A stretch of 64,000 nucleotides of DNA from positions 310,001-374,000 of the forward strand of contig NIVC01001016.1 in assembly GCA_002269645.1 (NCBI GenBank). Reading direction: 5' to 3'. This stretch comes from Macrostomum lignano. Lineage: Eukaryota. Within the stretch, counting starts at the first letter, position 1; every line of letters begins with the position of its first letter. A program made the position numbers and the translations under genes. Under the pieces are notes generated by a model. The model had not been told where the DNA came from, searched no databases, and saw only the letters and a program-made list of their open reading frames with translations. Positions 8,186-57,526 of the stretch are shown here, in pieces.

Positions 8186-12085
<3,900 letters not shown>

Positions 12086-12950: not shown

Positions 12951-13014
12951 CTCTAGCAGGAGCCATAGACTAAATGGGGAGGGACGATACAGAGTTTTTA
13001 ACCACTACCATACT

Positions 13015-13320
13015 GCCTAACAGGTAAACTAAACTATCTAACAGGTAAACTAAACTGTCTAACAGGTAAACTAAACTGTCTAACAGGTGAACTAAACTGT
13101 CTAACAGGTAAACTAAACTGTCTAACAGGTAAACTAAACTGTCTAACAGGTAAACTAAACTGTCTAACAGGTAAACTAAACTGTCTAACAGGTAAACTTA
13201 ACTATCTAACATGTAAAATAAACTGTCTAACAGGTAAACTATACTGTCTAACAGGTAAACTAAACTGTCTAACGGGTAAACTAAACTATCTAACAGGTAG
13301 ACTAGGCTGTCTAACAGTAG
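13015..13320. repeat. 21-bp minisatellite (ctaacaggtaaactaaactgt), inverted relative of the 11430-11865 array
   Basis: The revcomp unit acagtttagtttacctgttag matches the intron-3 unit of paralog 2. Confidence 0.9.
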
Positions 13321-21141: not shown

Positions 21142-21874
21142 TGGCTCGTTTTCTTTCTCAATCGGAATTTAGCCAGTGAAGAAATTTCGAGAGCGCGCTG
21201 CTTATCTCGGCGCTGTTATTTAACACAAGGAACCCCTGCCCCTACCTCTAACTCTACTATCTAACTCTGCTTTGTTGGCATGGATACCAATTGCATTTCA
21301 AGCAGAGACCCCGCGACAACAAAGGCGCTGCGATGCTATGGCCCGTAACTGTCTCTATTGTCAGCAGGTGGTCTCTCGACAGTCTCCAAGTTTGATTGAC
21401 AAGTTCACAACTACAAAAACGTGGGCGTTGTCTAAAACTTTTTTATTTGAGTTTAAAGTCGCTTAATCTTAAGAAGAAAGCTTTTATTTTAAAATTTTCG
21501 TCGAGAAAGTTGAAATCCACGCTTCGCTTGCTGACTAAAAAAGCTTTTCTCGTTCCTGACTGCCATTTGAGAATGATTTTTCTGCCGTCTTGTAGCGATA
21601 TCCTACTTACTAGTAAGTAATAAGTTTAGGAAAAATTCATTATTAAAATTAGTTACCTACAAAATCCTTTTCCAAAAGGCTGTCTTTAACGGTCCACAGG
21701 TTAGCTACTATCAGCTGTAACATAGCCCATCTAATGAAAATGCAACAAAGCATTCAATATGAAAAAAATGTTGCGATATTCTTCATATGCTACTTACAAT
21801 GCTGGAAAAAGGTAACGAGCAGTCTGCTAGATACTATTAGCTACTTTCGGTGTGTACCAGAAAATAGAGAATAG

Positions 21875-21989
21875 AGACTAGATATAGAAATAGCTACTTT
21901 TGATACATATCGGATAATAAATATAGAAATAGCTACTTTCTATACATATCGGATAATAAATATAGAAATAGCTACTTTCGATACATATC
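21875..21989. repeat. 39-bp minisatellite (atatcggataataaatatagaaatagctactttcgatac), left part interrupted by the Polinton
   Basis: About 3 units, in the same orientation as the array at 26312-26750. Confidence 0.9.
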
Positions 21990-22800
21990 AGTAGTAGGAA
22001 AGTGGTACCCTCCACCGCCATCGCACCGGATTGGCCGGGGCACCCGGCCAATGAGGGGAGAGGGCCCCCAAAAGACGCCCACCCCGACCCCAGACCCACC
22101 ACCGCCACGCACCCACCCCCGACCCCAACGCCGCCACGCACCCACCCCCGACCCCAAACCCACCACCGCCACGCACCCACCCCCGACCCCAAACCCACCA
22201 CTGCCGCACCTATCTCCGACCCCAAACCCACGCACCCACCCCGAGCCCAAACCGGGCCCCCTCCTGTCCTGCACCCCATCCCATATAACACGGTCCTTCT
22301 ATCCTGCACCCCATACTAAGGCCCCTTCCTGTCCTGCACCCCATCCCATACCAAGGCCCCTTCCTGTCCAGCACCCCATCCCATACCGGAGGCAGGAGAA
22401 ATGGGTCGGGCAAGCCCAGGAGTGGGGTCGGGCAGGCCGGTCGAGCAGGCCAGATGAGGGGTCGGGCAGCCGAGTGTCTGGTTGAGTGTCCAAGTGTGGG
22501 TATCGAGATGTGAATGAGTGTCCATTGGCGAGTGTCCTCCTACCGCGTGTGGTGACACGCAACACAGAGTTTCAATGTGATCCGGTAGAGGGTCCGATTG
22601 CTTGGAATTTCCGAGTAGAGAGGGGAAGGGATTCTATTGGTCGAGAAGGAATTCTATTGGTCGATAGGTCCCTGGCGAACGATTTGGTTTGGACCCTGCG
22701 GGAGAAGGGCCCCAGTACCCTTTATAAACAAAGCACCTGGGACTCAGTAGACCCCATAGATTATTTATTTATTTTAGATTAAATTAAAAATACAACGAAA

Positions 22801-23367
22801 ATGCAAATAACTTGCGACTTTTGCGAGTCATCAGTAATCGGGGGCATTGAGGAGCACTATGCGGTATGTCCTGCGATACCAGCACTGTTTGAGTCAGATG
22901 ACTCCCCAATGATTCATTTTCAACTGATTAAGGAGGCGTTTAATGGCAGGTCCCAACTTTACCGGGCCAGTGCATGCGGCGACCCGATGAATGTTTTGGA
23001 AAACACTCGTCAACCTTTCATTGACTTGATCACCCAGCATCAACGTGAGCCAGGAACCGCCATCAAAGTTCAGCTGCGCCTCGGAGTCCTGATGCAGCGC
23101 ATCATTAATGGTAGCTGCGCCGCCGAGAACACCGCCTGGTTTACTGCCAAGGTCCACTCTGTTTTTCGGAGTGAGGAGGAGCAATACTTCTCTGACGATA
23201 TACAGACTATACTCAACCGGATAGAGAAGTACCTACGCAATGGCAGTGGCTGGGTAATCAGGGCCACTCGGTGTGTTGACGTGTCAACCGCAAGTTATTA
23301 TCTACCGCATGGAGCGTCGTGCAAAAGGCCAAGAATGAGTTCAAGAAAGACTGCAACAAGCTGCTAA
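22801..23367 (+). CDS. 188-aa ORF corresponding to the N-terminal part of a Polinton-type protein-primed DNA polymerase B (left arm)
   Basis: It has a CxxC...HxxxC zinc-finger-like start and the IEKYLRNGSGWVI...YYLPHGAS segment, which resembles the GSGW...YxPxxGSS motif of invertebrate Polinton pPolB N-termini. It is preceded by a TATA-like ctttataaa. Confidence 0.7.
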   Translation: MQITCDFCESSVIGGIEEHYAVCPAIPALFESDDSPMIHFQLIKEAFNGRSQLYRASACGDPMNVLENTRQPFIDLITQHQREPGTAIKVQLRLGVLMQRIINGSCAAENTAWFTAKVHSVFRSEEEQYFSDDIQTILNRIEKYLRNGSGWVIRATRCVDVSTASYYLPHGASCKRPRMSSRKTATSC

Positions 23368-23570
23368 ACAACTCCCTGTAGACCATCGAGTATGTTCGCA
23401 AGCAAGTGGACTACGTGCTGGTTTATTCAGCAGGGAAGCCTGTGGCCAAGCCGACGTTCCGCGATCAGATGATTTTCAACGGGGATTTAGCTCTAGTGCA
23501 CATTCTCAAGACGAATGTTGTGCTCGACAGGCTAGTGTATATCGGCCAGTGCGATCTGTCTGGACACTAG
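23360..23570 (+). pseudogene. pPolB palm (motif B region) remnant, left arm
   Basis: A shifted frame reads LLNNSL*TIEYVRKQVDYVLV...VAKPTFRDQMIFNGDLALVHILKTNVVLDRLVYIGQCDLS, matching the pPolB pattern NS(x)FGKTMENVRK...KPNF...IF...L..VH....V..DKP.Y.G. Confidence 0.7.
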
Positions 23571-24529
23571 CAAGCTCTTTTTCTCACATTTTTTTTCTTT
23601 GTAAATATCTGATTTAAAACAACTATATGCATGTAAATTTAATACGAACATACTATATTTTGAATAATAATAAATACAAGCTTTACTCTATGATATTAAA
23701 AAAAAACTGGAAATTGTTAGCTAGTGGATAAAACTAAAAGCCTAAGCTGGAATTTTCTAGAAAATCATTGGTTCAGGAGTATATCGTATATACATACCTG
23801 CCCTACACTAAACTTGGGTCCGAGCTGTTTGTGCAACTCTCGTTTTAATGCCTGATAGCCGCCATAGCTGCCCGGTCTACTGCAGTCAAAATAAACACCT
23901 GGCAGAATTTTTGAAATTGCCTTTTTCTTTTTCATTTTACGAAATTTTTAGTACCTATCATTTTCTTATGCCAAACACCTGGCTTGAAAAAAAAACTGCC
24001 CACCCCCACCAGTTTCTGCGGATTTAGCGTTTCTAGCCTCTGTTGTGCACGAAAAATCATGGATTTCAATGGGAATTTTTACCCGAATGTGTGCACGAAA
24101 AACCTCGACACTTTGCATACTTTTTAACACTGTGCACGAAAACTTGCATACTTGTGCACAAAATACATGCATTTCAATAGGGATTTTTACTCGAACCTGT
24201 GCATGAAAATTGACGCATGTTATCAAAAAAGTCACGTCATAATGCGTATTTTTATCACTGTGCACGAAAACATACATACTCGTGTACAAAATACATACAT
24301 TTTAATGAGAATTTTAACCCAAAGATGTGCACAAAAAATAACCCATTATGGTAAAAATATTAATGTGAAAGAACATTTTTCTCTCCTGCAGTGTACCAAA
24401 TATTGAATATGGCAAAGCATGTATTTATTATTATTCAGAATATATTACGTTCGTATTAAATTCACATGCATATAGTTAAAAATTAAAGATATGTGAAAAG
24501 AAAAAAAAATGTGAGAAAAAGAGCTTGCT

Positions 24530-24710
24530 AGTGTCCAGATCGCACTGGCCGACACTGGCTTGTCATCTTGAGAATGTGCACTAGAGCTAAATCCCCGTTG
24601 AAAATCTTCTGGTCGCGGAATGCTGACTTGGCCACAGGCTTTGAATTGACTAGTCGGTAGTCCACTTGCTTGCGAACATTTTCGATGGTCTACAGGGAGT
24701 TGTTTAGCGG
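24530..24710 (-). pseudogene. pPolB palm remnant, right arm
   Basis: The minus strand reads LNNSL*TIENVRKQVDYRLVNSKPVAKSAFRDQKIFNGDLALVHILK. Confidence 0.7.
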
Positions 24711-25267
24711 CCCGTTGTCTTTCTTGAACTCATTCTTGGCCTTTTGCACGACGCTCCATGCGGTAGATAATAACTTGCGGTTGACACGTCAACACACCGA
24801 GTGGCCCTGATTACCCAGCCACTGCCATTGCGTAGGTACTTCTCTATCCGGTTGAGTATAGTCTGTATATCGTCAGAGAAGTATTGCTCCTCCTCACTCC
24901 GAAAAACAGAGTGGACCTTGGCAGCAAACCAGGCGGTGTTCTCGGCGGCGCAGCTACCATTAATGATGCGCTGCATCAGGACTCCGAGGCGCAGCTGAAC
25001 TTTGATGGCGGTTCCTGGCTCACGTTGATGCTGGGTGATCAAGTCAATGAAAGGTTGACGAGTGTTTTCCAAAACATTCATCGGGTCGCCGCATGCACTG
25101 GCCCGGTAAAGTTGGGACCTGCCATTAAACGCCTCCTTAATCAGTTGAAAATGAATCATTGGGGAGTCATCTGACTCAAACAGTGCTGGTATCGCAGGAC
25201 ATACCGCATAGTGCTCCTCAATGCCCCCGATTACTGATGACTCGCAGAAGTCACAAGTTATTTGCAT
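24704..25267 (-). CDS. Inverted, near-identical copy (187 aa) of the pPolB N-terminal ORF (right arm)
   Basis: The protein is identical to 22801-23367 except for WFTAK versus WFAAK and the last few residues. Confidence 0.7.
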   Translation of the reverse strand: MQITCDFCESSVIGGIEEHYAVCPAIPALFESDDSPMIHFQLIKEAFNGRSQLYRASACGDPMNVLENTRQPFIDLITQHQREPGTAIKVQLRLGVLMQRIINGSCAAENTAWFAAKVHSVFRSEEEQYFSDDIQTILNRIEKYLRNGSGWVIRATRCVDVSTASYYLPHGASCKRPRMSSRKTTGR

Positions 25268-26311
25268 TTTTGTTGTAAGTTATTTTATTTATTGTAACTT
25301 TATTAACGTAATTTTATATAAAATAAAAAATCTAAGGGCCGAGGTGCTTTATTTATAAAGGGTACTGGAGCCCTTCTCTCGCAGGGTCCAAACCAAATCG
25401 TTCGCCAGGGACCTATCGACCAATAGAATTCTTTCCCCACATTATACTCGGAAATCACTTCAAATGCTTGCTCGACCAATAGAATCCCTTCCCCTCTCTA
25501 CTCGGAAATTCCAAGCAATCGGACCCTCTACCCGTTAAGATCACATTGAAACTCTGTCTTGCGTGTCACCACACGCGATAGAGGACACTCACCAATGGAC
25601 ACTCATTCACAACTCGATACCCACCCTTGGACACTCAACCAGACACTCAGCTGCCCAACCCCTCATCTGGCCTGCTCGACCGGCCTGCCCGACCCCCACC
25701 CTTGGCCTGCTTGACCCCCCTCATCCAGCCTGCCCGACCCCACTCTTGGGCTTGCCCGACCCCAACCTAGGCTTGCCCGACATTTCTCCGGCCTCCGGTA
25801 TGGGATGGGGTGCAGGACAGGACGGGGGCCGGTTTGAGGTCGGGGTGGGCGACTTTGAGGGGCCCGGTTTGGGGTCGGAGGTAGGTGCGGCGGTGGTGGG
25901 TTTGGAGTCGGGGTGGGCGTCTTTGGCGGGCCCGGTTTGGGGTCGGAGGTAGGTGCGGCGGTGGTGGGTTTGGAGTCGGGGTGGGCGTCTTTGGCGGGCC
26001 CGGTTTGGGGTCGGAGGTAGGTGCGGCGGTGGTGGGTCTGGGGTCGGGGGTGGGTGCGTGGCGGTGTTGGGTTTGGGGTCGGGGTGGGCATCTTTGGGGG
26101 CCCGGTTTGGGGTCGGGGTGGGCATCTTTGGGGGGCCCGGTTTGGTCGGGGGTGGTGCTGGGCGGTGTTGGGTCTGGGGTCGGGGGTGGGTGCGTGGCGG
26201 TGGTGGGTCTGGGGTCGGGGTAGGCGTCTTTGGGGGCCCTCTCCCCTCATTGGCCGGGTGCCCCGGCCAATCCGGTGCGATGGCGGTGGAGGGTACCACT
26301 TTCCTACTACT

Positions 26312-26750
26312 CATATCGGATAATATATATAGAAATAGCTACTCTGGATACATATCCGATAATAGATATAGAAATAGCTACTTTCGATACATATCGGATA
26401 ATAAATATAGAAATAGCTACTTTCAATACATATCGGATAATAAATATAGAAATAGCTACTTTCGATACATATCGGATAATATATATAGAAATAGCTACTT
26501 TCGATACATATCGGATAATAAATATAGAAATAGCTACTTTCGATACATATCGGATAATATATATAGAAATAGCTACTCTGGATACATATCCGATAATAGA
26601 TATAGAAATAGCAACTTTCGATACATATCGGATAATAGATAGAGAAATAGCAACTTTCGATACATATCGGATAATAAATATAGAAATAGCTACTTTCGAT
26701 ACATATCGGATAATAGATAGAGAAATAACTACTTTCGATACATATCGGAT
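26312..26750. repeat. 39-bp minisatellite, right part (about 11 units)
   Basis: It continues the array interrupted at 21989. Confidence 0.95.
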
Positions 26751-29700
26751 AATTGCACACCCTGTGTGAGCGTGTGTGTGAGTGCGTGCCTGAGTACAGT
26801 ACTGCCGCGCTTGCATGTGCTCAAGTTTGAAGAAGTTCAACGTCTATCCAATCCAGACCCGATTGATTCTAAATGAGTTTTGCTGGTCAAAATGAATAAA
26901 CAAAAATGGAATTAGAAACGCATTTTTGGTAGAGATTTTTTTAATTCCAGAAAAACGAAAAAACGGCAATATGTAGCAACCGTGTCTGTAGGTGTTTATT
27001 AATATTATTATTATTAAAATTATTTTGTATAAAAATAATGTTCGTGACGTTAAAGTGAACAGCCTGCTCTATAAATGAGTTCTATATTTAATCTACGCTA
27101 AAATTCTACCCTGACAAAATAGTTGAACAACCAACCAGCACATTTTGGGCTATTTAAAGCTGTCTAATATCTTTCGCTATAAAATTACAGAATACGGGGA
27201 CCCGGGAGGGCAGAAAACTATCATTACCGCAAAAAGCACGCAAATACAATACATGAATAGTTAAACCTTTTTATCAGATGGCAAGCAATTTGAAATTTGC
27301 AGCGAATTATAACAAAATAACTTCAATTTAGGGGGGGGGGGCGGCAGAAGACAGTTGAGACTTTGATTGATCAAACTTCAAAATGATTAAAAATGTAAAC
27401 TGTCGGTACAGAATAGTGTGGCAAATAATAAATAAATAATAACTGCTTGGAGACTTGCTAATATTAATTAATTTAAACTCAATGTTTTTTTGGCGGTAAA
27501 AAGTATTAAAATTGTATTGAAACAGAGAGAAAAAAGGTTTTTAAAAAATTTAAGGAAAAAACTGTTGCTTATAACGAAGAAATAGACCGGACAACAGCAG
27601 CCCCTGCTCACGCTGTGTAGAACTAATTACCTAGGTAAGATAAATTGCATAACGAAAAAACACCAACACAAATGGTTCCTATTAATACACAAATAATAGA
27701 TATAAAACTAAAGCTATTCGGTTGTTTGTCCTTTGCTTAATAATAATCTCAAAAACTTAATAATAATAATAATAGACCAAAAAGTTGTTTTGCTTTTCTT
27801 AATTAAGAAAAAAATGGAACAAAAAAGTGCGGCCGCTGATTGCAAATGATAAATAATTGACAAAGTTCAGCAAGTATAATAGTTTTAAAAGCTTGGTGTA
27901 AGTAAATCATCACAGCAAAGTGTCAATCAACTTTACTAATTATATAAACTGCACTTGCGAACCCGGGGTTACTGCTGAGTCTAAGAGCTGATCAACTTTG
28001 AGCAACGGGAGAACCAGGCTGATAAACAAAAATAGGCTGGGATAAAAACAGAACACTTTTCAAAAATAAACCGAGTGAAAAAAATGAAAAAAAGAAAAAA
28101 AATACACGATGTTCGTCTATTTAGGAAGTAGCATACATAGTATAGTAGAATAATGTTTTAATTTCGAAATAAATAATAAACGCAGACTTAAAAAAATTTA
28201 ATTACACAAGTAATTTCCAAATTGTGACTTGACTTTTGAGTGGAATTAATGGAATATTAAAACAGACACAATGTCATTCTTTAGCCCTGGAAGCCAGTTC
28301 AAATCTTCTTATCCAACAGTCGCCCAGAAACTTTTGCGAGACCCCAAGTTTCATTTTGAATTAGAGGATTCATCCAGCACTACTTATCCAACCCCAGAAT
28401 GTAAGTAGCAAAAAAGCATGTATCAAAGATTAAAAAATAATTATTAAAAAAGCGTATATAGGTATTAATATCACTCCGATGAGATGGGATGGCTCAGGCA
28501 AGACATCTGCATTGCAGACACTAAACAGCATAAATATGAATTATTAATAGGAGTAATAATTGAATAATGAGGGCATTAGTTACTTGCTATTGCACCAGCC
28601 AGTATATTTAAATCTGGATAAAGTTGAAATAAAATATTACTTAATAAAAAATAGTCCATTGTGTTCAGATTAAGGTAACGGGGGGTGGGGTACATTAAAA
28701 ATTTGAAAATACAATTATCGAATAAAGGAGATTACAGGATGTCAGTCACTACAGAGCAACAACCTAATGCTGGTGTAAAACGGTTACCAAAAGGTGGCGA
28801 GGTTGAAAGATTATTACAAAAAAAGATTTACTCTCTTATAAATAATAGTAGTAGTAGCGATATTGGTAAATGAAAAACAGACTATAAGAAAGGTAAACAG
28901 GTGCTTAAAAAATGTAGGGCACTGGGATTAGCTAATTAAAACACAATAATAGTAGTAATAGTAGTATTATTATTCATAAATTTATTAATAATTCGATTGC
29001 ACAAGGTTGGCTAAACTGTTATTTATTTTTAAAAAATAAGCTTTTTACCTACTATGCTGAGAGAAAAAGGTGAACAAAGTCAAGGCCAAGATGTTAGTAT
29101 ACTGTATGAAATAACAATAATAATAATATTACTAATCATAATTAACTTACTCATAAGAGTTGTTATCTAATGTAGGTAGGATGATGTCATTTTGTAATAT
29201 TTTTCTCTAATAAAATAATAATTAGATAGCAAGCAAAGGAGTCAAACAGGAAGATATAGCCTAAAACAATAAATAAAAATAGCCATATAATATATTATGA
29301 TTAAAATAAAACCAACTGGGTATAATACACAGTTTCTAAAATAACTAGATGGGCCACTCAGGCATAATATACTTAGTAAAATTCCTTTCTACTTTCAGTT
29401 CAGTAGCAAAGAAGAATACATAAGCTATTTTATAAAATAAAGGCAGCTGAAATGACTTTGATAAGTTTAAAAGCCAAGCTTTCAGGCGTAAACAGCTTGC
29501 TTGCTAATTGGTTCAGCAATAATGTACATTGGCCAGTCCACTGAAATGCACATATATAACAGCTTTTATTGGGCTGGGATTCCGAGAAAGGCAATAAAAA
29601 TTGGGGCGGGGCGGGAGGTGGTTTTAGGTTCGGGGGGGGGGAAGAGCCAATAAAGGAGGATTGGCTTGAAAAATACATTAAAATGCTTCTGTTTAGCTTA

Positions 29701-29935: not shown

Positions 29936-32900
29936 CTAATTAATGTAGAGCGTATCCAGCACCAGCACGTGATGATTGTTCTTAGCTAGGGTGACAACGT
30001 AGCCTTCGCTAGTGATTTTCAGTCCGCAGCATCGGGACACTTTCACGGCCGGACACTCGAACTCGGAAGTCAGCTGGCCGAGCCGATTAAACACGGCCAC
30101 GTGGAACTTGTTACCATGCGAGTCGCCAACTAAAACATCGCCATGGTCGCTAATGTCGATGCCGTTAGGAAAATTAGTGACAGATTCGGAGCCGATGCGG
30201 CGAAGGAACACGCCGTCTTCCTGTGGATTGGGAGGGGGGCGGCGGCTAGTCTCACTATACTAAATCTCAGATATTGTGCTATTGTCATAAAATCTAGAAG
30301 TTAAGCAAATTTGGTCGCGGTTAGGTACGTAGATGAACACACTGTTTGAGATAAGCTAAGTGCACTACAGGTAACGGTAATACCACGTTGAAAACACCGG
30401 TTCTCGTCTGATCACCGAAGTTAAGCAATGATGGGTTTGGTTAGTTCTTGGATGGGTGACCGCCTGTGAGTACCAATCGTTTGTTGTCTGTTTTTGTAAA
30501 AAGGGCCTTGAAAAAATCTAGAAACTGTAAAATGAGTAAATTGAGTGTGTGGCGACCCCCCCCCCCTAGTCCACATCTGTCAACTGTGACAATGACTTTA
30601 TTAAAGTGCATAGAAGTCCTACCTGAAACACTGACACGCAGTGGCCCTTGAAATCGCAGATGAAATACTCCCGACCCTGGATAGCGATGTCAGACGGCTC
30701 GCGCATATAGCTAGAGCAGTCGAACCACTTCACTAGATCGCCATTCTCGGCGATGGCGAATACGGTTGGAGACACGGAGTCCACGGCCACAATATGATTC
30801 TGGCTATTGATGGCCAGCCCGGCAACTATGTCTATGTAGCGCACGGTGATTTTGCGCAGGAAGTGGCCCGATTTAGTGAAGATTTGCATGCGACTGCGTT
30901 CGCTGCCTCGGTCGCAGATTATGTACTTGCCGGTTTGGCGCATGACAACTACCTGGCAACGGGAGCGAGTGTACAGTCGAATGGATGTATTTATTCAGAT
31001 TTTTGGGTTCTTTATGCGAATTTCTGTAACTGTAACTCTCACATTCTTAGAAAACTACCGGCATCCCAGGTCCCAAATTAAAGCTACCAGCCTCCCAGGT
31101 CCCCAAATTAAAGCTACCGGCCTCCCAGGTCCCCAAATTAAAGCTACCGGCCTCCCAGGTCTCCAAATTAAAGCTACCAGCCTCCCAGATCCCTAAATTA
31201 AAGCTACCGGCCTCCCAGATCCTCAGATTAAGCTACCAGCCTCCCAGATCCTCAGATTAAGCTAGCAGCCTTCCAGATCCTCAGATTAAGCTACCAGCCT
31301 CCCAGATCCTCAGATTAAGCTACCTGCCTCCCAGATCCCTAAATTAAAGCTACCAGCCTCCCAGATCCCCAGATTAAGCTGCCAGCCTCCCAGATTAAGC
31401 TACCAGCCTCCCAGATTAAGCTACCAGCCTCCCAGATTAAGCTACCAGCCTCCCAGATTAAGCTGCCAGCCTCCCAGATTAAGCTACCAGCCTCCCAGAT
31501 TAAGCTACCAGCCTCCCAGATTAAGCTACCAGCCTCCCAGATTAAGCTACCAGCCTCCCAGATTAAGCTGCCAGCCTCCCAGATTAAGCTGCCAGCCTCC
31601 CAGATTAAGCTACCAGCCTCCCAGATTAAGCTACCAGCCTCCCAGATTAAGCTACCAGCCTCCCAGATTAAGCTACCAGCCTCCCAGATTAAGCTACCAG
31701 CCTCCCAGATTAAGCTACCAGCCTCCCAGATTAAGCTACCAGCCTCCCAGATTAAGCTACCAGCCTCCCAGATTAAGCTACCAGCCTCCCATATCCTCAG
31801 ATTAAGCTACCAGCCTCCCAGATTAAGCTACCAGCCTCCCAGATTAAGCTACCAGCCTCCTAGATCCCTAAAAATAAAGCTACCAGCCTCCCAGATCAAA
31901 TCCCTCACCTTTCTCGGATACCACAGCTGCCCCTCGTCGCGGCCGGCCACGCCGAACTGGAACTTGTGCTCGCCGGTCTTGTCGAACACCTGAATCCGGT
32001 GGTTCTGAGTGTCAGCCACAACAATATCCTCGTCAGAGCCGAGGCAGAAACCATGCGGCGAATTAAACTGACCGCGCGACGAGCCTAGCGAGCCCCAGCG
32101 AAACCGGACAGTCATGTTCCCGCAGCGGCCGTTCCGATTCGGGAATGGCATTCCACCGCCGCCACCTCCGCCGCCGCCACTGCCGCCGCTGCCAATGGAT
32201 CGGCCGCCGCCACCGCCGCCGCCCATGAAGTCCATGGAGTTCGGCGTCATCGCTCTGGGCGTTGTACCGATTATTGGCGACACGGGACCGACAGCGCCGC
32301 CACCGCCACCTCCGACACCGCTTCCGACGCCGACACCGCCGACATCCAGACTGAGTTTAGCGGCCAGCATGCTGCTGATCAGACTGTTGGCACCGCCGAC
32401 TCCATCGACAACGCCGGCAATTGACGAAGCTACCGAGGCCGATGAAACAACCGCCGCGGTGGTATCGGCAGCGGCGACAGCTGCAGCCGCCGATTGCGGC
32501 AATCCGTAGAGCACCTGCGGCGGTACAACCGTAGCCGGTGCGTTGCTAGCCAGCATGTGAGGCTTCATCAGTTCGGCGTTCTGATGCTGAGCGTGATGCT
32601 GCAGCATCAGTTGAGGATCGAACTGATCCACAGAGCCGGCTGCGGCGGCGGAACCGAGCGAACCAGATTCCGAACTGTTGCCGAATGTGCCGAAATTGGC
32701 TTCGAGCAGGGCTCGAACCCGGGGATGATTAGCCTGAAACGGGATGCTAGTGAGCAGGCCGGTGTCCCAGTGATTCCTAGTCAGGGTGGCCATCCAGTCC
32801 ACTAGGAGTTTCCTAGCGTAGGCCAGGGTGCCGGCACCGGCGCGCTCGCGGTATTGGCGGACGAATTGCTCGGCTTCGGACATTTGGTCCACCCCGCGGC

Positions 32901-35900
32901 TGGTGGCTTCTAGCAGCTCCATCACCTGGCGGCGGCGCGTGTTTAGAGTGCGAATTAATCGATTGTTCCAGTAATTCCAGTGTTCTAATAAACTTGGCTT
33001 GGGAATATTTAGGGACTTAGAGACTTGGGGAGAATTCCCCATGACTTAGGGGAATTTCCTCATGACTTAAAGATTCTGAATGATTTAAGGAAATTTCCTG
33101 ATGGCTTCAAGGGAGATTTCTCAATGGCTAACGGAGATTTCATAATGGCTTAGGGAGATTTCCCAATGACTTAGAAAGATTTCCCAATGACTTGGAGAGA
33201 TTTCCTATTGACTTAGGGAGACTTCCCATTGACTCAGAAAGACTTCCAATGACTCAAGAAAGATTTCAAATGACTTAGGGAGATTTCCCATTGACTTAGG
33301 GAGATTTCACATTGACTTAGGGAGATTTCCCATTGACTCAGAAAGACTTCCAATGACTCAAGAAAGATTTCAAATGACTTAGGGAGATTTCCCATTGACT
33401 TAGGGAGATTTCACATTGACTTAGGGAGATTTCCCATTGACTTAGGGAGATTTCACATTGACTTAGGGAGATTTCACATTGACTTAGGGAGATTTCACAA
33501 TGACTTAGGGAGATTTCACAATGACTTTGGGAGATTTCACAATGACTTAGGGAGATTTCACATTGACTTAGGGAGATTTCACAATGACTTAGGGAGATTT
33601 CACAATGACTTAGAGAGATTTCACAATTTCATGAGTCAGAAAGATTTCCCCATAACTTTAGGAGATTGCCTCATGACTAAGGAAGACTCCCCATTGACTC
33701 AGAGATTTTCTAGACGACTAAAGGAGGATTAAATCGGCTATTTTTCCTGACGATTTAGCGTTTTTTAATGGCAATATTTTTTGCCGAATCCAAAATAAGA
33801 AAAGCCTTACCTTCATTTCTAAATCATCATGCAGACGGCGATTCTCTTTAGCGGCAGTCTCGCCAATCTCTTCAACAAAGGCCCGATAAGAGGCGACGGC
33901 TTCGGCAATTGCGCCGGCGTTCTGCTCGCGGCTGTCCCGAATCTCTTCCAGCTTCTCTTGGAGAGAGGCCAGCTCGGTTTCCCAACGGTCGCGAGAATTG
34001 CTTAGTTGAGTGAGGCCGACTGACAGGTCCGCGTCCACCTTGATGGGAGAGTGAGATGGATAGAGTGCGAGTGTACATTGGGGCAGGGTTTAGGATAGCA
34101 GGAGTGTACATTGGGGCAGGGTTTAGGATAGCGGGAGTGTACATTGGGGCAGGGTTTAGGATAGCGGGAGTGTACATTGGGGCAGGGTTTAGGATAGCGG
34201 GAGTGTACATTGGGGCAGGGTTTAGGATAGCGGGAGTGTACATTGGGGCAGGGTTTAGGATAGCGGGAGTGTACATTAGGGCAGGGTTTAGGATAGCGTG
34301 AGTGTACATTGGGGCAGGGTTTAGGATAGCGTGAGTGTACATTGGGGCAGGGTTTAGGACAGCGTGAGTGTACACTGGGGCAGTCTCTGAGTTAGTGAGT
34401 TTACCGGTACAATGGGGCAGACAGTCTGGGTTAGCGTGAGTATACATTGGGACAGGCTGTGGGTTAACCTGAGTGTACATTGGGGCAGGCTGTGGGTTAG
34501 CGTGAGTGTACATTGGGGCAGGCCGTGGGTTAGCGTGAGTGTACATTGGGGCGGGCCGTGGGTTAGCGTGAGTGTACATTGGGGCAAGCTGTGGGTTAGC
34601 GTGAGTGTACATTGGGGCAGGCTGTGGGTTAGAGCGAGTGTACCTTCGGGCAGGGTTTATGTTTTCGTGAGTATATTCAGGCAGTGTTCTGGTTTACATG
34701 AGTGTACATTGGGAAGGACTATGGGTTGGCGCGAGTGTACATTGTGTTTCATCTCACTTGAGGAAATGCATCAGCAACTTTGTCAACAACGTGCTGCTTG
34801 TGATCCATGGCGACGCACTCGGGACAGTGCAGGGTGCCGCAGTCTTGACAATAGTACTTCAGCTGCTCCTGGAAAAAATGAAAGGAATAAAATAGAAATA
34901 ATAAGCACACTCATAATAAAGCCTACTTTAAGTAGTAAAATTGCAATACTTTACCTGCGGATGATCGAAGCAAAAGATTGGCTTTTGTAACTGCAACGGC
35001 GTGTCAGTTTCTAAATCTTCCGGCGTAATCTCTTCAACGTGATGCTTGCTAAACATTTTCATCACCGAGTGGGCGGCGCGGCAGGAGCCGCACAAGAAAT
35101 CGGCGCACTCGGTGCACTTGGCAACGGCTTCGGCTCCGGTGGTGCAGCCGCCGCATTTCACTCGCTTCTGACTGCTGGAGGCGGCAGCAGCAGCCGCGGC
35201 TGCTGTAGACGGGTCTGCTGACTCCACCGATCTGAGCAGGCATTTAATATTCAATAGTTTTATGAATTTAAGCAATTGTCGGGACAGTTTGAGAGCGATG
35301 TTTATAAACAACAGTTTGTGGCAGATTTTTGGGCGATTTTTAAAGGCAGTTTATGGGCATTTTTAGAGCAGTTTATGGCCAAAATTTAAAGCAGTTTACG
35401 GCTGATATTCAAAACAGTTTATGGCCGATGTTTAGGGCAGTTTGTGACTGATTTTTTGGGCGATTTTCAAGGCAGTTTATGGTTGATATTTAAGGCAATT
35501 TATGGCCGATATTTAGAGCAGTTTATGGCCAATATTTAAGGCAGCTCATGGCAGATATTTAAGGCAGCTCATGGCAGATATTTAAGGCAGTTTATGGCCA
35601 ATTTTTAAGGCAGTTTATGGCAATTATTTAAGGCAGTTTATGGCCGATATTTAGGGCAGTTTATGGCCAATTTTTAGGGCAGTTTATGGCAGATATTTAA
35701 GGCAGTTTATGGCCGATATTTAAGGCAGTTTATGGCCGATATTTAGGGCAGTTTATGGCCAATTTTTAAGGCAGTTTATGGCAGATATTTAAGGCAGTTT
35801 ATGGCCGATATTTAGGGCAGTTTATGGCCAATATTTAAGGCAGTTTATGGCAGATATTTAAGGAAGTTTATGACTAATTTTTAAGGCAATTTCTGGCTGA

Positions 35901-38150: not shown

Positions 38151-39415
38151 TATCTGATTGTCGGGAAAGTTCTTTTACATGTACATTCCAGAACATTCTA
38201 TTTGTGCTTGTTCTTGGAACATTCTCAATGTAATGTGCATATAAATAGTGAATAGTGTGCATACAAAAACTACAATAGATAAACATTCTTTGCTCGACTA
38301 TCTGAAATGGCAAAAGATACTCTGCTCTCGAAAGACCTGCAGCGCGTGCTGCTTCTCTACAACTTTTGCTCTGGCAAGAGTGCGAGTCAGTCGGCCACCG
38401 ACATCAATGCTGCATTTGGTGCGGGAACCCTCACTCGTCAGACTGCCAACAATTGGTTCAGGCAATTCAAAGATGGGGATGAGGGCCTCAAAGACAAGCC
38501 ACGCAGTGGCCGGCCGGCAGAGCTCGACGACGGTGCACTTGAGCAGCTGCTTGAGTGGGACACCCGGCAGACTACACGTGAGCTGGCGGCACAGCTGGGT
38601 GTGCATCACTCAACTGTTGCCGACCACCTTCACCATCTGAACAAGAAGCCAAAGCTGGGATGTTGGGTGCCCCACCAGCTGACCGCCACTGACATGGACC
38701 GGCGCATTGAGGCCGCCCTCACCATGCTCTCCCAATCTCGCCGTCCAGATTGGCTGGACGATGTGGTGACAGGTGACGAAAAATGGTGCCTCTACGTCAA
38801 CATCCGACGCAAGCGACAGTGGGTTGATTCTGATGCAAAGCCAGAGCGAGAGGCCAAGGCTGAGCTGCACCCCAAGAAGGTCATGCTTTCAGTCTTCTGG
38901 GACACAAAAGGAATAATAATGTGGGAGCTGCTGCCGAAGAACAAGAGCATCAATGCTGCCTTCTACCAGGAGCAGCTTGAGCGCCTGCAGCAAAAGCTGG
39001 CTGAGGTGCGCCCTGAACGTTGCTGGGTCATCTTGTTGCACGATAACGCACCTACGCACAAGGCACAGTCGACCCGTCAGAAGCTGCTCGAGCTGGGCTG
39101 GGAGATTCTTCCCCATCCACCGTACAGCCCAGATCTTGCACCCACTGATTATCACCTGTTTGCCGCCCTCGACTGTTCTATGGCCGGCAAGGAGTTCAAT
39201 GATGAGGACAACCTGAAGACCCACCTGACAAACTTCTTCGAGGGCCAGCGCCCAGAGTTCTACAGCCAGGGCATCCGCTCCTTGCACACACGCTGGCAGA
39301 GGGTTATTGACCATGATGGTGACTACATTTAAGATTGATAAACCCATTGTCCAGAAAAGTGTTACATTTAATAAACTTCTGACAAATGTAAAAAATTTTT
39401 CCACACAATCAGATA
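38151..39415 (+). mobile_element. Full-length mariner transposon
   Basis: Imperfect ~28-bp TIRs (tatctgattgtcgggaaagttcttttacat versus the revcomp tatctgattgtgtggaaaaattttttacat) with TA ends enclose an intact transposase. Confidence 0.88.
38307..39332 (+). CDS. Mariner transposase (D,D34D), intact, 341 aa
   Basis: HTH region, WVPHQL, VTGDEKW, HDNA and HPPYSPDLAPTDYHLF are all present; exactly 34 residues separate the second and third catalytic Asp. Confidence 0.96.
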   Translation: MAKDTLLSKDLQRVLLLYNFCSGKSASQSATDINAAFGAGTLTRQTANNWFRQFKDGDEGLKDKPRSGRPAELDDGALEQLLEWDTRQTTRELAAQLGVHHSTVADHLHHLNKKPKLGCWVPHQLTATDMDRRIEAALTMLSQSRRPDWLDDVVTGDEKWCLYVNIRRKRQWVDSDAKPEREAKAELHPKKVMLSVFWDTKGIIMWELLPKNKSINAAFYQEQLERLQQKLAEVRPERCWVILLHDNAPTHKAQSTRQKLLELGWEILPHPPYSPDLAPTDYHLFAALDCSMAGKEFNDEDNLKTHLTNFFEGQRPEFYSQGIRSLHTRWQRVIDHDGDYI

Positions 39416-56530: not shown

Positions 56531-57526
56531 AACCGATTTGCTCCCAGTAGAAGAGTCGCAGCAGTAGAAGACCAGCGAGTTAGATCAGGCAATGTAGAAT
56601 ATGGCAATTTAGTTTGGTATAATTATTACAGAGGCTACGGATTCCTGTGAGATAGCAATAATAGAGATATTTTCTTTCATGTGATTAATACTAATATAGC
56701 AACTGATTACGAAATTATGCACTTTCTGCGCCAGAGGGCGACAGTAAAATTTATCCGCACTAGCGATACTACTCATAGTAGAAAACAGAGAGCAGTCAAT
56801 GTTAAAATTTGCTCAAGCGAGGAACGCAAATTAGCAGAAATCGATAAACAGAAGTCAGCGAGCTTAGCTAGACAGTCAGAGCAATTGACAGAAGAATTAG
56901 AGGAACGAAGCGAAGCTGCGGCAGCTCAGAGAAGTGCATTGAACAGCATAGACTTGCGACTCAGTGAAGTAGAAGGAAAGAAAGCTTCAGCGGACGAATC
57001 TAAAGTAGTAAAAGAATTATCAGATCTAAGAACCGAATTGAAGGACTTGCGCCAATGCTTGGTAGGGAAAGTCCAAGAAGAATCAGCGAAAGAAGAACCT
57101 GACAAGAGTGCAACGACAACAGAACTTAGAGCTGAACTTAGGGAAATGAAGCAGGAATTAAGAAAGTTAGAGACAGCCATCCAGCGAGATGTGGCAGCTG
57201 AAAAGAAAGCAACAGAGAAGCAAGAAAAGACCGTAGAAGCAGACATATCTAGCCTATTAGTAAACTCAGGATTATTGCTCGATAGCCAGATTAACGGATT
57301 AAGCGAAAAAATATTAGTTGACACCGGCGCCTCGAATTGCCTAATTGATAATAAATTATATCAGCGCCTCTATCCAGCAAATCATAGTTTGAAGCCATTC
57401 TCAGTAAATATGCGATCCGCAAATGGCCAGACTTCAAATTTATTAGGCCAAGTAGCATTGCGCGTTAGATTCGGGGATTGCGAGATTACGCATCCATTCT
57501 ATGTTGCTGAAGGCTTACTAATGTAG
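56477..57526 (+). pseudogene. Pol-frame product: cold-shock domain, coiled coil and retroviral-type aspartic protease (one in-frame TGA at 56648)
   Basis: The frame reads GNLVWYNYYRGYGFL*DSNNRDIFFHV...LRQRATVKF...QRAVNV (CSD with RNP1- and RNP2-like motifs), then an E/K/L-rich heptad region, then KILVDTGASNCLID...MRSANG...LLGQV. Confidence 0.75.

Follow-up and report, generated by a model that had tools for sequence, protein, structure and literature searches.

Polintons, or Mavericks (Polintoviricetes), have long been modelled as replicating through a free, protein-primed, self-annealing linear DNA, and to our knowledge this model has little direct support in animals. Palindromic deletion forms are known from adenoviruses and yeast linear plasmids, and adenoviruses replicate through a panhandle. 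The present study concerned a 4.3-kb palindromic element in a stretch of 64,000 nucleotides (hereafter the window) from the polyploid laboratory flatworm Macrostomum lignano (assembly GCA_002269645.1, contig NIVC01001016.1, positions 310,001 to 374,000 of the forward strand). Judging from the assembled sequence, the element is a real, single-copy, non-autonomous Polinton derivative, with two left ends that would have come from two different templates.

Polintons carry (AGT)2...(ACT)2 ends as well as duplications of a 6-bp target site (TSDs), and intact vertebrate elements measure 12.7-24.6 kb, with terminal inverted repeats (TIRs) of 46-1,447 bp, according to the available part of PMC8097293, where 96% of vertebrate copies were degraded and the function of the end motif was treated as expected. 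The window element resembles them in its ends, its 6-bp TSD and an N-terminal terminal-protein domain of pPolB, and its parent family does so in its rve integrase, double-jelly-roll and minor capsid proteins, protease and ATPase. In contrast to them, it is only 4.3 kb long, holds two copies of one end, and lacks a catalytic polymerase or integrase.

By analogy, similar structures are already known from Galileo and defective viruses. As described in the accessible part of PMC3573991, non-autonomous Galileo copies carry, at one end, an inverted second copy of the internal sequence that adjoins the opposite TIR, with exchange between subfamilies; extended-TIR copies are explained there by a repair model, and inverted-repeat expansion in Polintons is said to have been reported earlier. 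However, Galileo moves by cut-and-paste with no replicating linear form, the pieces it recruits are mostly non-coding, and the explanation given is chromosomal repair. Copy-back and snap-back defective viral genomes are helper-dependent and have one end present twice, the two copies forming a long complementary stem around a unique loop, whereas the window element is integrated with a TSD and its arms appear to come from two templates; by the definitions in the portion of PMC13506859 available, it would be copy-back-like and not snap-back, because a loop is present. Mu killer of maize is an inverted duplication of part of a transposon that could yield hairpin RNA against its family (PMC1563492, available in part). 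The inverted duplication in the window could yield a hairpin RNA as well, which is a functional analogy only, but the AATAAA that follows the open reading frame (ORF) in each arm (23669, +; 24424, -) may stop read-through. No description of a palindromic Polinton was found in the literature searched (titles and the beginnings of abstracts, with most subscription papers and the founding Polinton papers outside the scope), and none was seen in the available parts of PMC11414722, PMC3014272, PMC6431247, PMC8502044 and bioRxiv 10.1101/2023.08.22.554363, among which the lizard paper describes non-autonomous copies as apparently absent.

A palindrome with two haplotypes in its arms

The element starts with AGTAGTAGGAAAG and finishes with CTTTCCTACTACT, with CATATC on either side, and has (AGT)2/(ACT)2-type terminal motifs, TIRs and a 6-bp TSD (Table 1). 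The end motif presumably serves as replication origin and integrase site. The insertion interrupts a 39-bp tandem array (21882-21989, then 26312-26753) whose unit holds CATATC once. Three homologous loci (C1665, C2204 and C3233), with flanks 93-96% identical, were without the element, and the two empty-site arrays inspected as letters were uninterrupted. Because the hexamer was doubled at the insertion and three empty loci exist, the TSD is real, and a chance duplication supplied by the array was rejected. Given the empty homologous sites, the insertion looks recent. The flanks are direct and not inverted, and therefore do not show the pattern of an assembly fold-back. An earlier note on this DNA, made from its letters, had described the termini, the TSD, arms of 1.7 and 1.9 kb and a spacer of ~0.7 kb, all of which were confirmed, the arms making up ~84% of the element. 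Its description of a non-autonomous Polinton derivative with one end duplicated was borne out as well, as both termini and internal DNA come from a Polinton family of the same genome, and so was its statement that integrase, capsid and ATPase are missing: tblastn with the family's proteins found no match in the element to integrase, capsid, protease, ATPase or accessory proteins, and Pfam gave nothing significant for the element's ORFs.

Table 1. Positions of the palindromic element and its parts in the window
Feature	Position	Strand	Description
Whole element	21990-26311		4,322 bp; ends AGTAGTAG...CTACTACT
TSD, left copy (CATATC)	21984..21989	+	Inside 39-bp tandem array
Left arm	21990-23697	+	1,708 bp; polymerase-side end of polymerase-deleted family, C3259/C176-like haplotype
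Terminal 80 bp	21990..22069	+	Same as right terminus; (AGT)2-type end motif
GC-rich subterminal tandem repeats	22078..22390	+	Units of 29-35 bp
Left-arm ORF	22801..23367	+	188 codons; putative pPolB terminal-protein (D1) domain; Ser149 in GSGW loop
Homogenised tract	22822..23350, partner ~24718-25246		1 difference in 529 bp between arms
Out-of-frame pPolB remnant	23310..23552 (start approximate)	+	Residues ~950-1030; inherited deletion junction
Fusion junction	23698..23706	+	Left arm joined to parent's T-run (A9 on +)
Spacer	23698..24397	-	~700 bp; parent family's polymerase-integrase intergenic DNA
Right arm	24398-26311	-	1,914 bp; polymerase-side end; C2485-like upstream; downstream of ORF, haplotype unlike left arm's
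Right-arm copy of terminal-protein ORF	24704..25267	-	187 codons
TSD, right copy (CATATC)	26312..26317	+	

Global alignment of the two arms gave 1,547 matches, 102 mismatches and 311 gap columns, with the arms delimited slightly shorter than in Table 1, and an identity of 93.8% over ungapped columns. Near-identity was confined to the terminal 80 bp and to a core of 561 bp (99%), and the counterpart of the GC-rich subterminal repeats in the right arm is a longer array (25823-26239). The fusion junction lies ~100 bp upstream of the parent's integrase start, with ~1 nt of microhomology, and the central junction had one match in the 764-Mb assembly. Folding of the loop region (z -13) simply restates the inverted repeat. 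No RNA run was present among the public runs on record listed for the element. Contigs from 4 of the 24 listed public runs, compared with 21700-24400 (left flank, left arm and spacer), carried other letters at the private variants 23014, 23161 and 23164 and the parent-type continuation at 23702, with no junction-bridging piece among the matches listed; such contigs drop rare variants, so the comparison speaks neither for the palindrome nor against it.

Comparison of the arms with 19 arm sequences from 18 contigs (C862, without most of the arm, was excluded) indicated two sources. By the junction (23351-23690), the left arm differed from eight copies at 1-4 sites and from the right arm at 43, and in this region, beside the ORF's downstream side, the nearest copies to the right arm were 23-29 sites away. 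Upstream, the left arm was 98-100% identical to C3259 and the right arm 97% identical to C2485. Between these divergent regions the arms differed from each other at only 4 of 560 sites, with the nearest other copy 16 away, and three variants common to both arms occurred in none of the 19 other arm sequences. The homogenised tract mixes diagnostic states of both haplotype groups with private variants. The simplest reading would be that two haplotypes were fused and that conversion between the arms came later. The earlier note had proposed copy-back from one template, which predicts identical arms; instead, the arms matched two pre-existing haplotypes, and because they come from two different haplotypes, a one-template snap-back is not the likely source.

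The right tip appears to have been homogenised as well. Of 45 other ends, 4 had exactly its end signature (a gap near nt 81 and T at 91), and each of these 4 carried T24 and G38; nonetheless, the right tip carries the C24 and C38 of the left arm. The letter at nt 24 was the same at both ends in 24 of 26 two-ended copies, as would be expected if the ends pair during replication.

The parent family and its terminal-protein reading frame

A search of the assembly (764 Mb in 5,269 contigs; the window is in C1016) with the terminal 23-mer returned 65 matches at ≤1 mismatch and none for a control, and most of the matching regions were retrieved for comparison. Of the other copies with two ends (n = 26), 23 had an exact 6-bp TSD, one a 5/6 match and two none. 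By gene mapping, the same termini are borne by two groups, one keeping and one having deleted the polymerase. The search for an autonomous parent suggested earlier thus yielded helper-type relatives with the same termini: in ten copies the pPolB region is largely or fully retained, and one of them has an open frame of 1,236 codons (Pfam DNA_pol_B_2), which served only as a ruler. The helper-type pPolB is almost identical to a protein named for M. lignano. In 6 of the 10, TIRs of 935-1,072 bp stop before the pPolB start, so the possibility that the parent's TIRs already covered the ORF was rejected.

A single deletion, by which residue ~168 of pPolB is joined out of frame to residue ~950, is common to 19 other contigs (C862 holds only its 3' part). 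These copies are mostly ~11 kb long, often with frameshifts, and the family keeps the terminal protein, integrase (Pfam rve), minor and major capsid proteins (labels taken from Atlas leads, V18-19 and DJR-like), protease and ATPase. Read in reverse, window positions 23702-26311 are the first 2.6 kb of this polymerase-deleted family; the arms and spacer match 18 other contigs, and the spacer is 88-93% identical to most parent-family copies; a foreign origin of the spacer was rejected. The polymerase was not lost in the event that made the palindrome; because the deletion was inherited from the ~11-kb family on those 19 contigs, it predates the palindrome.

Not counting palindromes, the deletion occupies ~14 distinct loci, and a TSD of its own marks most of them. 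Contig counts overstate insertions, since some pairs have flanking letters in common (C1131/C1769, C2126/C5126, C2079/C3493 and C1330/C414) and are probably alleles or homeologues of one insertion each. The presence of the same deletion at so many loci shows that trans-mobilisation of the polymerase-deleted family is real. It is thus this ~11-kb family, and not the 4.3-kb element, that forms the defective lineage mobilised in trans. This family also appears to be a recombinant, with its left end from a sister lineage and with shortened TIRs. Its short ORF (e.g., in C738, C255, C494, C2485 and C176) is 51% identical to helper-type pPolB and 83% to older copies (C13, C382, C1228 and C2657), and its genes from the integrase to the right end are mostly 95-100% identical to the helper type.

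Both arm ORFs of the window element point inward. The ORF of each arm matches residues 4-168 of the 1,236-aa pPolB at 51%, and the last ~16 residues of the 188-codon ORF derive from the deletion junction; apart from the matched stretch, each arm holds only the out-of-frame 950-1030 piece of pPolB, and a complete polymerase is absent. The N-terminal motif of the 188-codon ORF is one that we take to be C2H2-like. The structure model (pLDDT 80.6, 19-row alignment) predicted a four-stranded sheet and two helices, the LF/PAD-like fold of PRD1-like terminal proteins, with Ser149, the sole invariant column (19/19 rows), placed after helix 128-146 and before strand 151-167. Among structural matches, the first nine were Y-family polymerase chains (Z 8.7-6.7), the best with Z 8.7, a root-mean-square deviation of 2.8 and 106 aligned residues; a Z near 8 is modest alone. 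The best viral match was an adintovirus protein (E 1e-9). Homologs numbered 11 with phmmer, while a word-based search with the short ORF found 0 among 18 candidates of similar length. For the terminal-protein domain in pPolBs of Polintons, the same fold, best-hit class and linking-residue position were reported (bioRxiv 10.1101/2024.03.18.585575, available in part). Because these three features match those reported for pPolB D1, the polymerase deletion probably left a stand-alone terminal-protein ORF. The earlier note had a deleted pPolB gene pointing inward in each arm; the orientation and the pPolB origin stand, and a stand-alone terminal-protein domain is, on the model, the better description than a deleted polymerase. 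Adenovirids and a Stylophora coral polinton likewise have the terminal-protein domain as a separate ORF, according to the available part of the same preprint, but they keep the polymerase as a second gene, whereas the window family deleted it and the ORF is broken in many of its spreading copies.

The ORFs in both window arms are open and retain Ser149. Elsewhere in the family, a stop at codon ~144 is common to five copies, in four of which the frame ends at that point, and 5 of 21 arm sequences are frameshifted before that position. Selection on the ORF was weak, with non-synonymous to synonymous ratios (pN/pS) of 0.70 overall and 0.53 for shared variants, and dN/dS of 0.34-0.76 in 7 pairs. 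Purifying selection on the short ORF was therefore rejected, as the signal was too weak and the shared stops argue against need. The shared stop, the frameshifts and the weak selection indicate that the ORF is dispensable in cis for spread.

Several other features of the parent family were observed. A TATA-binding-protein-like gene (Pfam TBP, E 1e-18; L069:2398-2991) overlaps another ORF, and TBP occurs as a gene label in the available part of PMC8502044. A PC4-like ORF (L061:1388-2026) scored E 6e-5, below the curated cut-off. One otherwise ordinary copy (C1277:59273-62776) contains a clean internal inversion of ~3.5 kb, and another (C1330:160650-173241) has inverted flanks and no direct TSD, representing either a larger fold-back or an assembly error.

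Origin of the palindrome

On balance, we lean towards a template switch between two co-replicating free linear genomes, followed by integration in trans. As read from chromosomal fossils, two free linear genomes would be copied by a polymerase supplied in trans, and a strand begun at the left end of one would jump after 1.7 kb to the oppositely oriented strand of the other, running to the left end of that second genome and giving the order origin-ORF-spacer-ORF-origin. The displaced single strand would then pair with itself as a long panhandle, in which mismatch correction would homogenise the tip as well as the ~530-bp tract. The defective genome would be inserted by the integrase of another copy and would stay put as a dead-end by-product without giving rise to a spreading family. 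The TSD is of the 6-bp integrase type, and the join lies at an A/T run.

Two other palindromes in the family bear on this proposal. C592 (149057-159651; L031, L032) is a 10.6-kb palindrome with two left ends, 4.8-kb arms and the TSD TCTATG, in which, after a complete internal right terminus, the last 11 nt of that terminus recur and 4.8 kb is copied back to the left end. Its arm identities are 99.5% and 97.1%, both arms carry an integrase-to-TBP deletion, and its junction is single-copy in the assembly. C862 (327172-340125; L059, L060) measures 13 kb, has a right end on both sides (2.7 kb, 99.6%) and the TSD AGTATC, folds back at 336766/7 onto its own spacer, with a 100% copy at the centre, and has a further blunt deletion. 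Only ~50 bp separates its restart point from the junction of the window element, and this region upstream of the integrase gene is a possible fold-back hot spot. Both appear to be clean one-template fold-backs, with both arms from one template, which the window element fails to show; the copy-back mechanism of the earlier note therefore fits C592 and C862 better than the element for which it was proposed. Palindromes make up 3 of 27 two-ended copies, in three different structures. A free linear template allows a strand to run off and stutter at its terminus with no host DNA involved, as in C592. Together, the three look like fossil traces of errors made while a free linear Polinton genome replicated, and the tip homogenisation and the C592 junction would favour extrachromosomal formation, with chromosomal repair as the competing route.

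Several observations weigh against a switch between free genomes. All of the evidence comes from chromosomal fossils, from which we infer the free DNA form; the junction has almost no microhomology; and three palindromes are a small sample. The family is also mosaic, with C176, C4138 and C592 switching haplotype along the arm, and therefore a right-hand parent with a C24/C38 tip is possible. An unsampled donor or chromosomal arm-to-arm conversion could likewise give the patchwork tract.

A possible but less probable origin is repair after insertion, in which an ordinary 11-kb copy would have lost most of its length to a break and had its far end rebuilt through the TIR from the left end of an ectopic C3259-like copy, with 1.7 kb copied, rejoining at microhomology, and later chromosomal conversion making the shared tract. 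Such repair would yield two-haplotype arms and an intact TSD directly, ~20 homologous donors are present in the genome, and the available part of PMC3573991 describes both the end-F1-F1-end structure and the mechanism for Galileo copies with two recombinant TIRs. However, Galileo chimeras with ends from different subfamilies had no matching TSDs in the same source, and the left-arm variants on both tips, out to nt 24, would require invasion within the first ~23 nt as well as a second conversion of the right tip. Repair also gives a poor account of C592, with its complete internal terminus and stutter.

Fold-back of one template, with the arms diverging later by patchwise recombination with family members, is improbable, even though C592 and C862 demonstrate that such fold-backs exist in the family. 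Over the 100 bp of spacer next to the junction, C3259, the copy closest to the left arm, is the joint closest with 2 substitutions, but elsewhere in the spacer it is not, and the right arm would have to have been replaced later at least twice, once on each flank of the shared tract.

The earlier note had also placed the element in a defective-interfering or satellite class. A self-propagating satellite family, selected for its two origins and two terminal-protein genes, would be consistent with two open ORFs that keep the invariant Ser149 and with an insertion that looks recent, but we regard it as very improbable. Such a class needs spread, whereas the central junction occurred once in the assembly and that of C592 is also single, the three palindromes have three different structures, and the ORF, given the stop shared by five copies and pN/pS of 0.53-0.70, appears dispensable. 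The window element being single-copy, there is no palindromic satellite family. An assembly fold-back or chimera is scarcely credible: long palindromes are error-prone and the element is known from assembly sequence without a spanning long read, but the direct flanks are collinear with the three empty loci, the TSD is exact and the arms carry different real haplotypes.

Neighbouring features and implications

Elsewhere in the window, a Membralin gene (824-2524, +), an NHL-repeat frame (31852-33045, -), an open 349-codon mariner-type transposase frame (38283-39329, +; Pfam Transposase_1 E 3e-28, HTH_48) and a gag-type aspartyl protease fragment (56651-57523, +) were present. A further foldback-like element may be bounded by two arrays of 21-bp units in opposite orientation (11421-11884 and 13007-13317), which lie ~1.1 kb apart and are 87% complementary.

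Taken alone, the window element is one dead-end copy and gains its value from the set to which it belongs. Three TSD-flanked fold-backs whose junctions can be read, end-to-end homogenisation and a trans-mobilised lineage without polymerase are fossil evidence bearing on the free-linear model, and the fold-back fossils and the polymerase-less lineage make that model testable in M. lignano, where filled and empty sites can be typed. More speculatively, and with considerable doubt, all of these observations may be read jointly: animal Polintons would replicate as free linear genomes that shed adenovirus-like defective forms, recorded here; a polymerase-less lineage of ~11 kb, still with terminal protein, integrase and capsids, would have out-spread its helpers; and about 1/9 of insertions would be fold-backs whose two ends are of the same type. 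The window element would then be a mini-genome with two origins and two terminal proteins, formed between co-replicating genomes, and it could act as an interfering replicon or as the source of a silencing hairpin similar to Mu killer.

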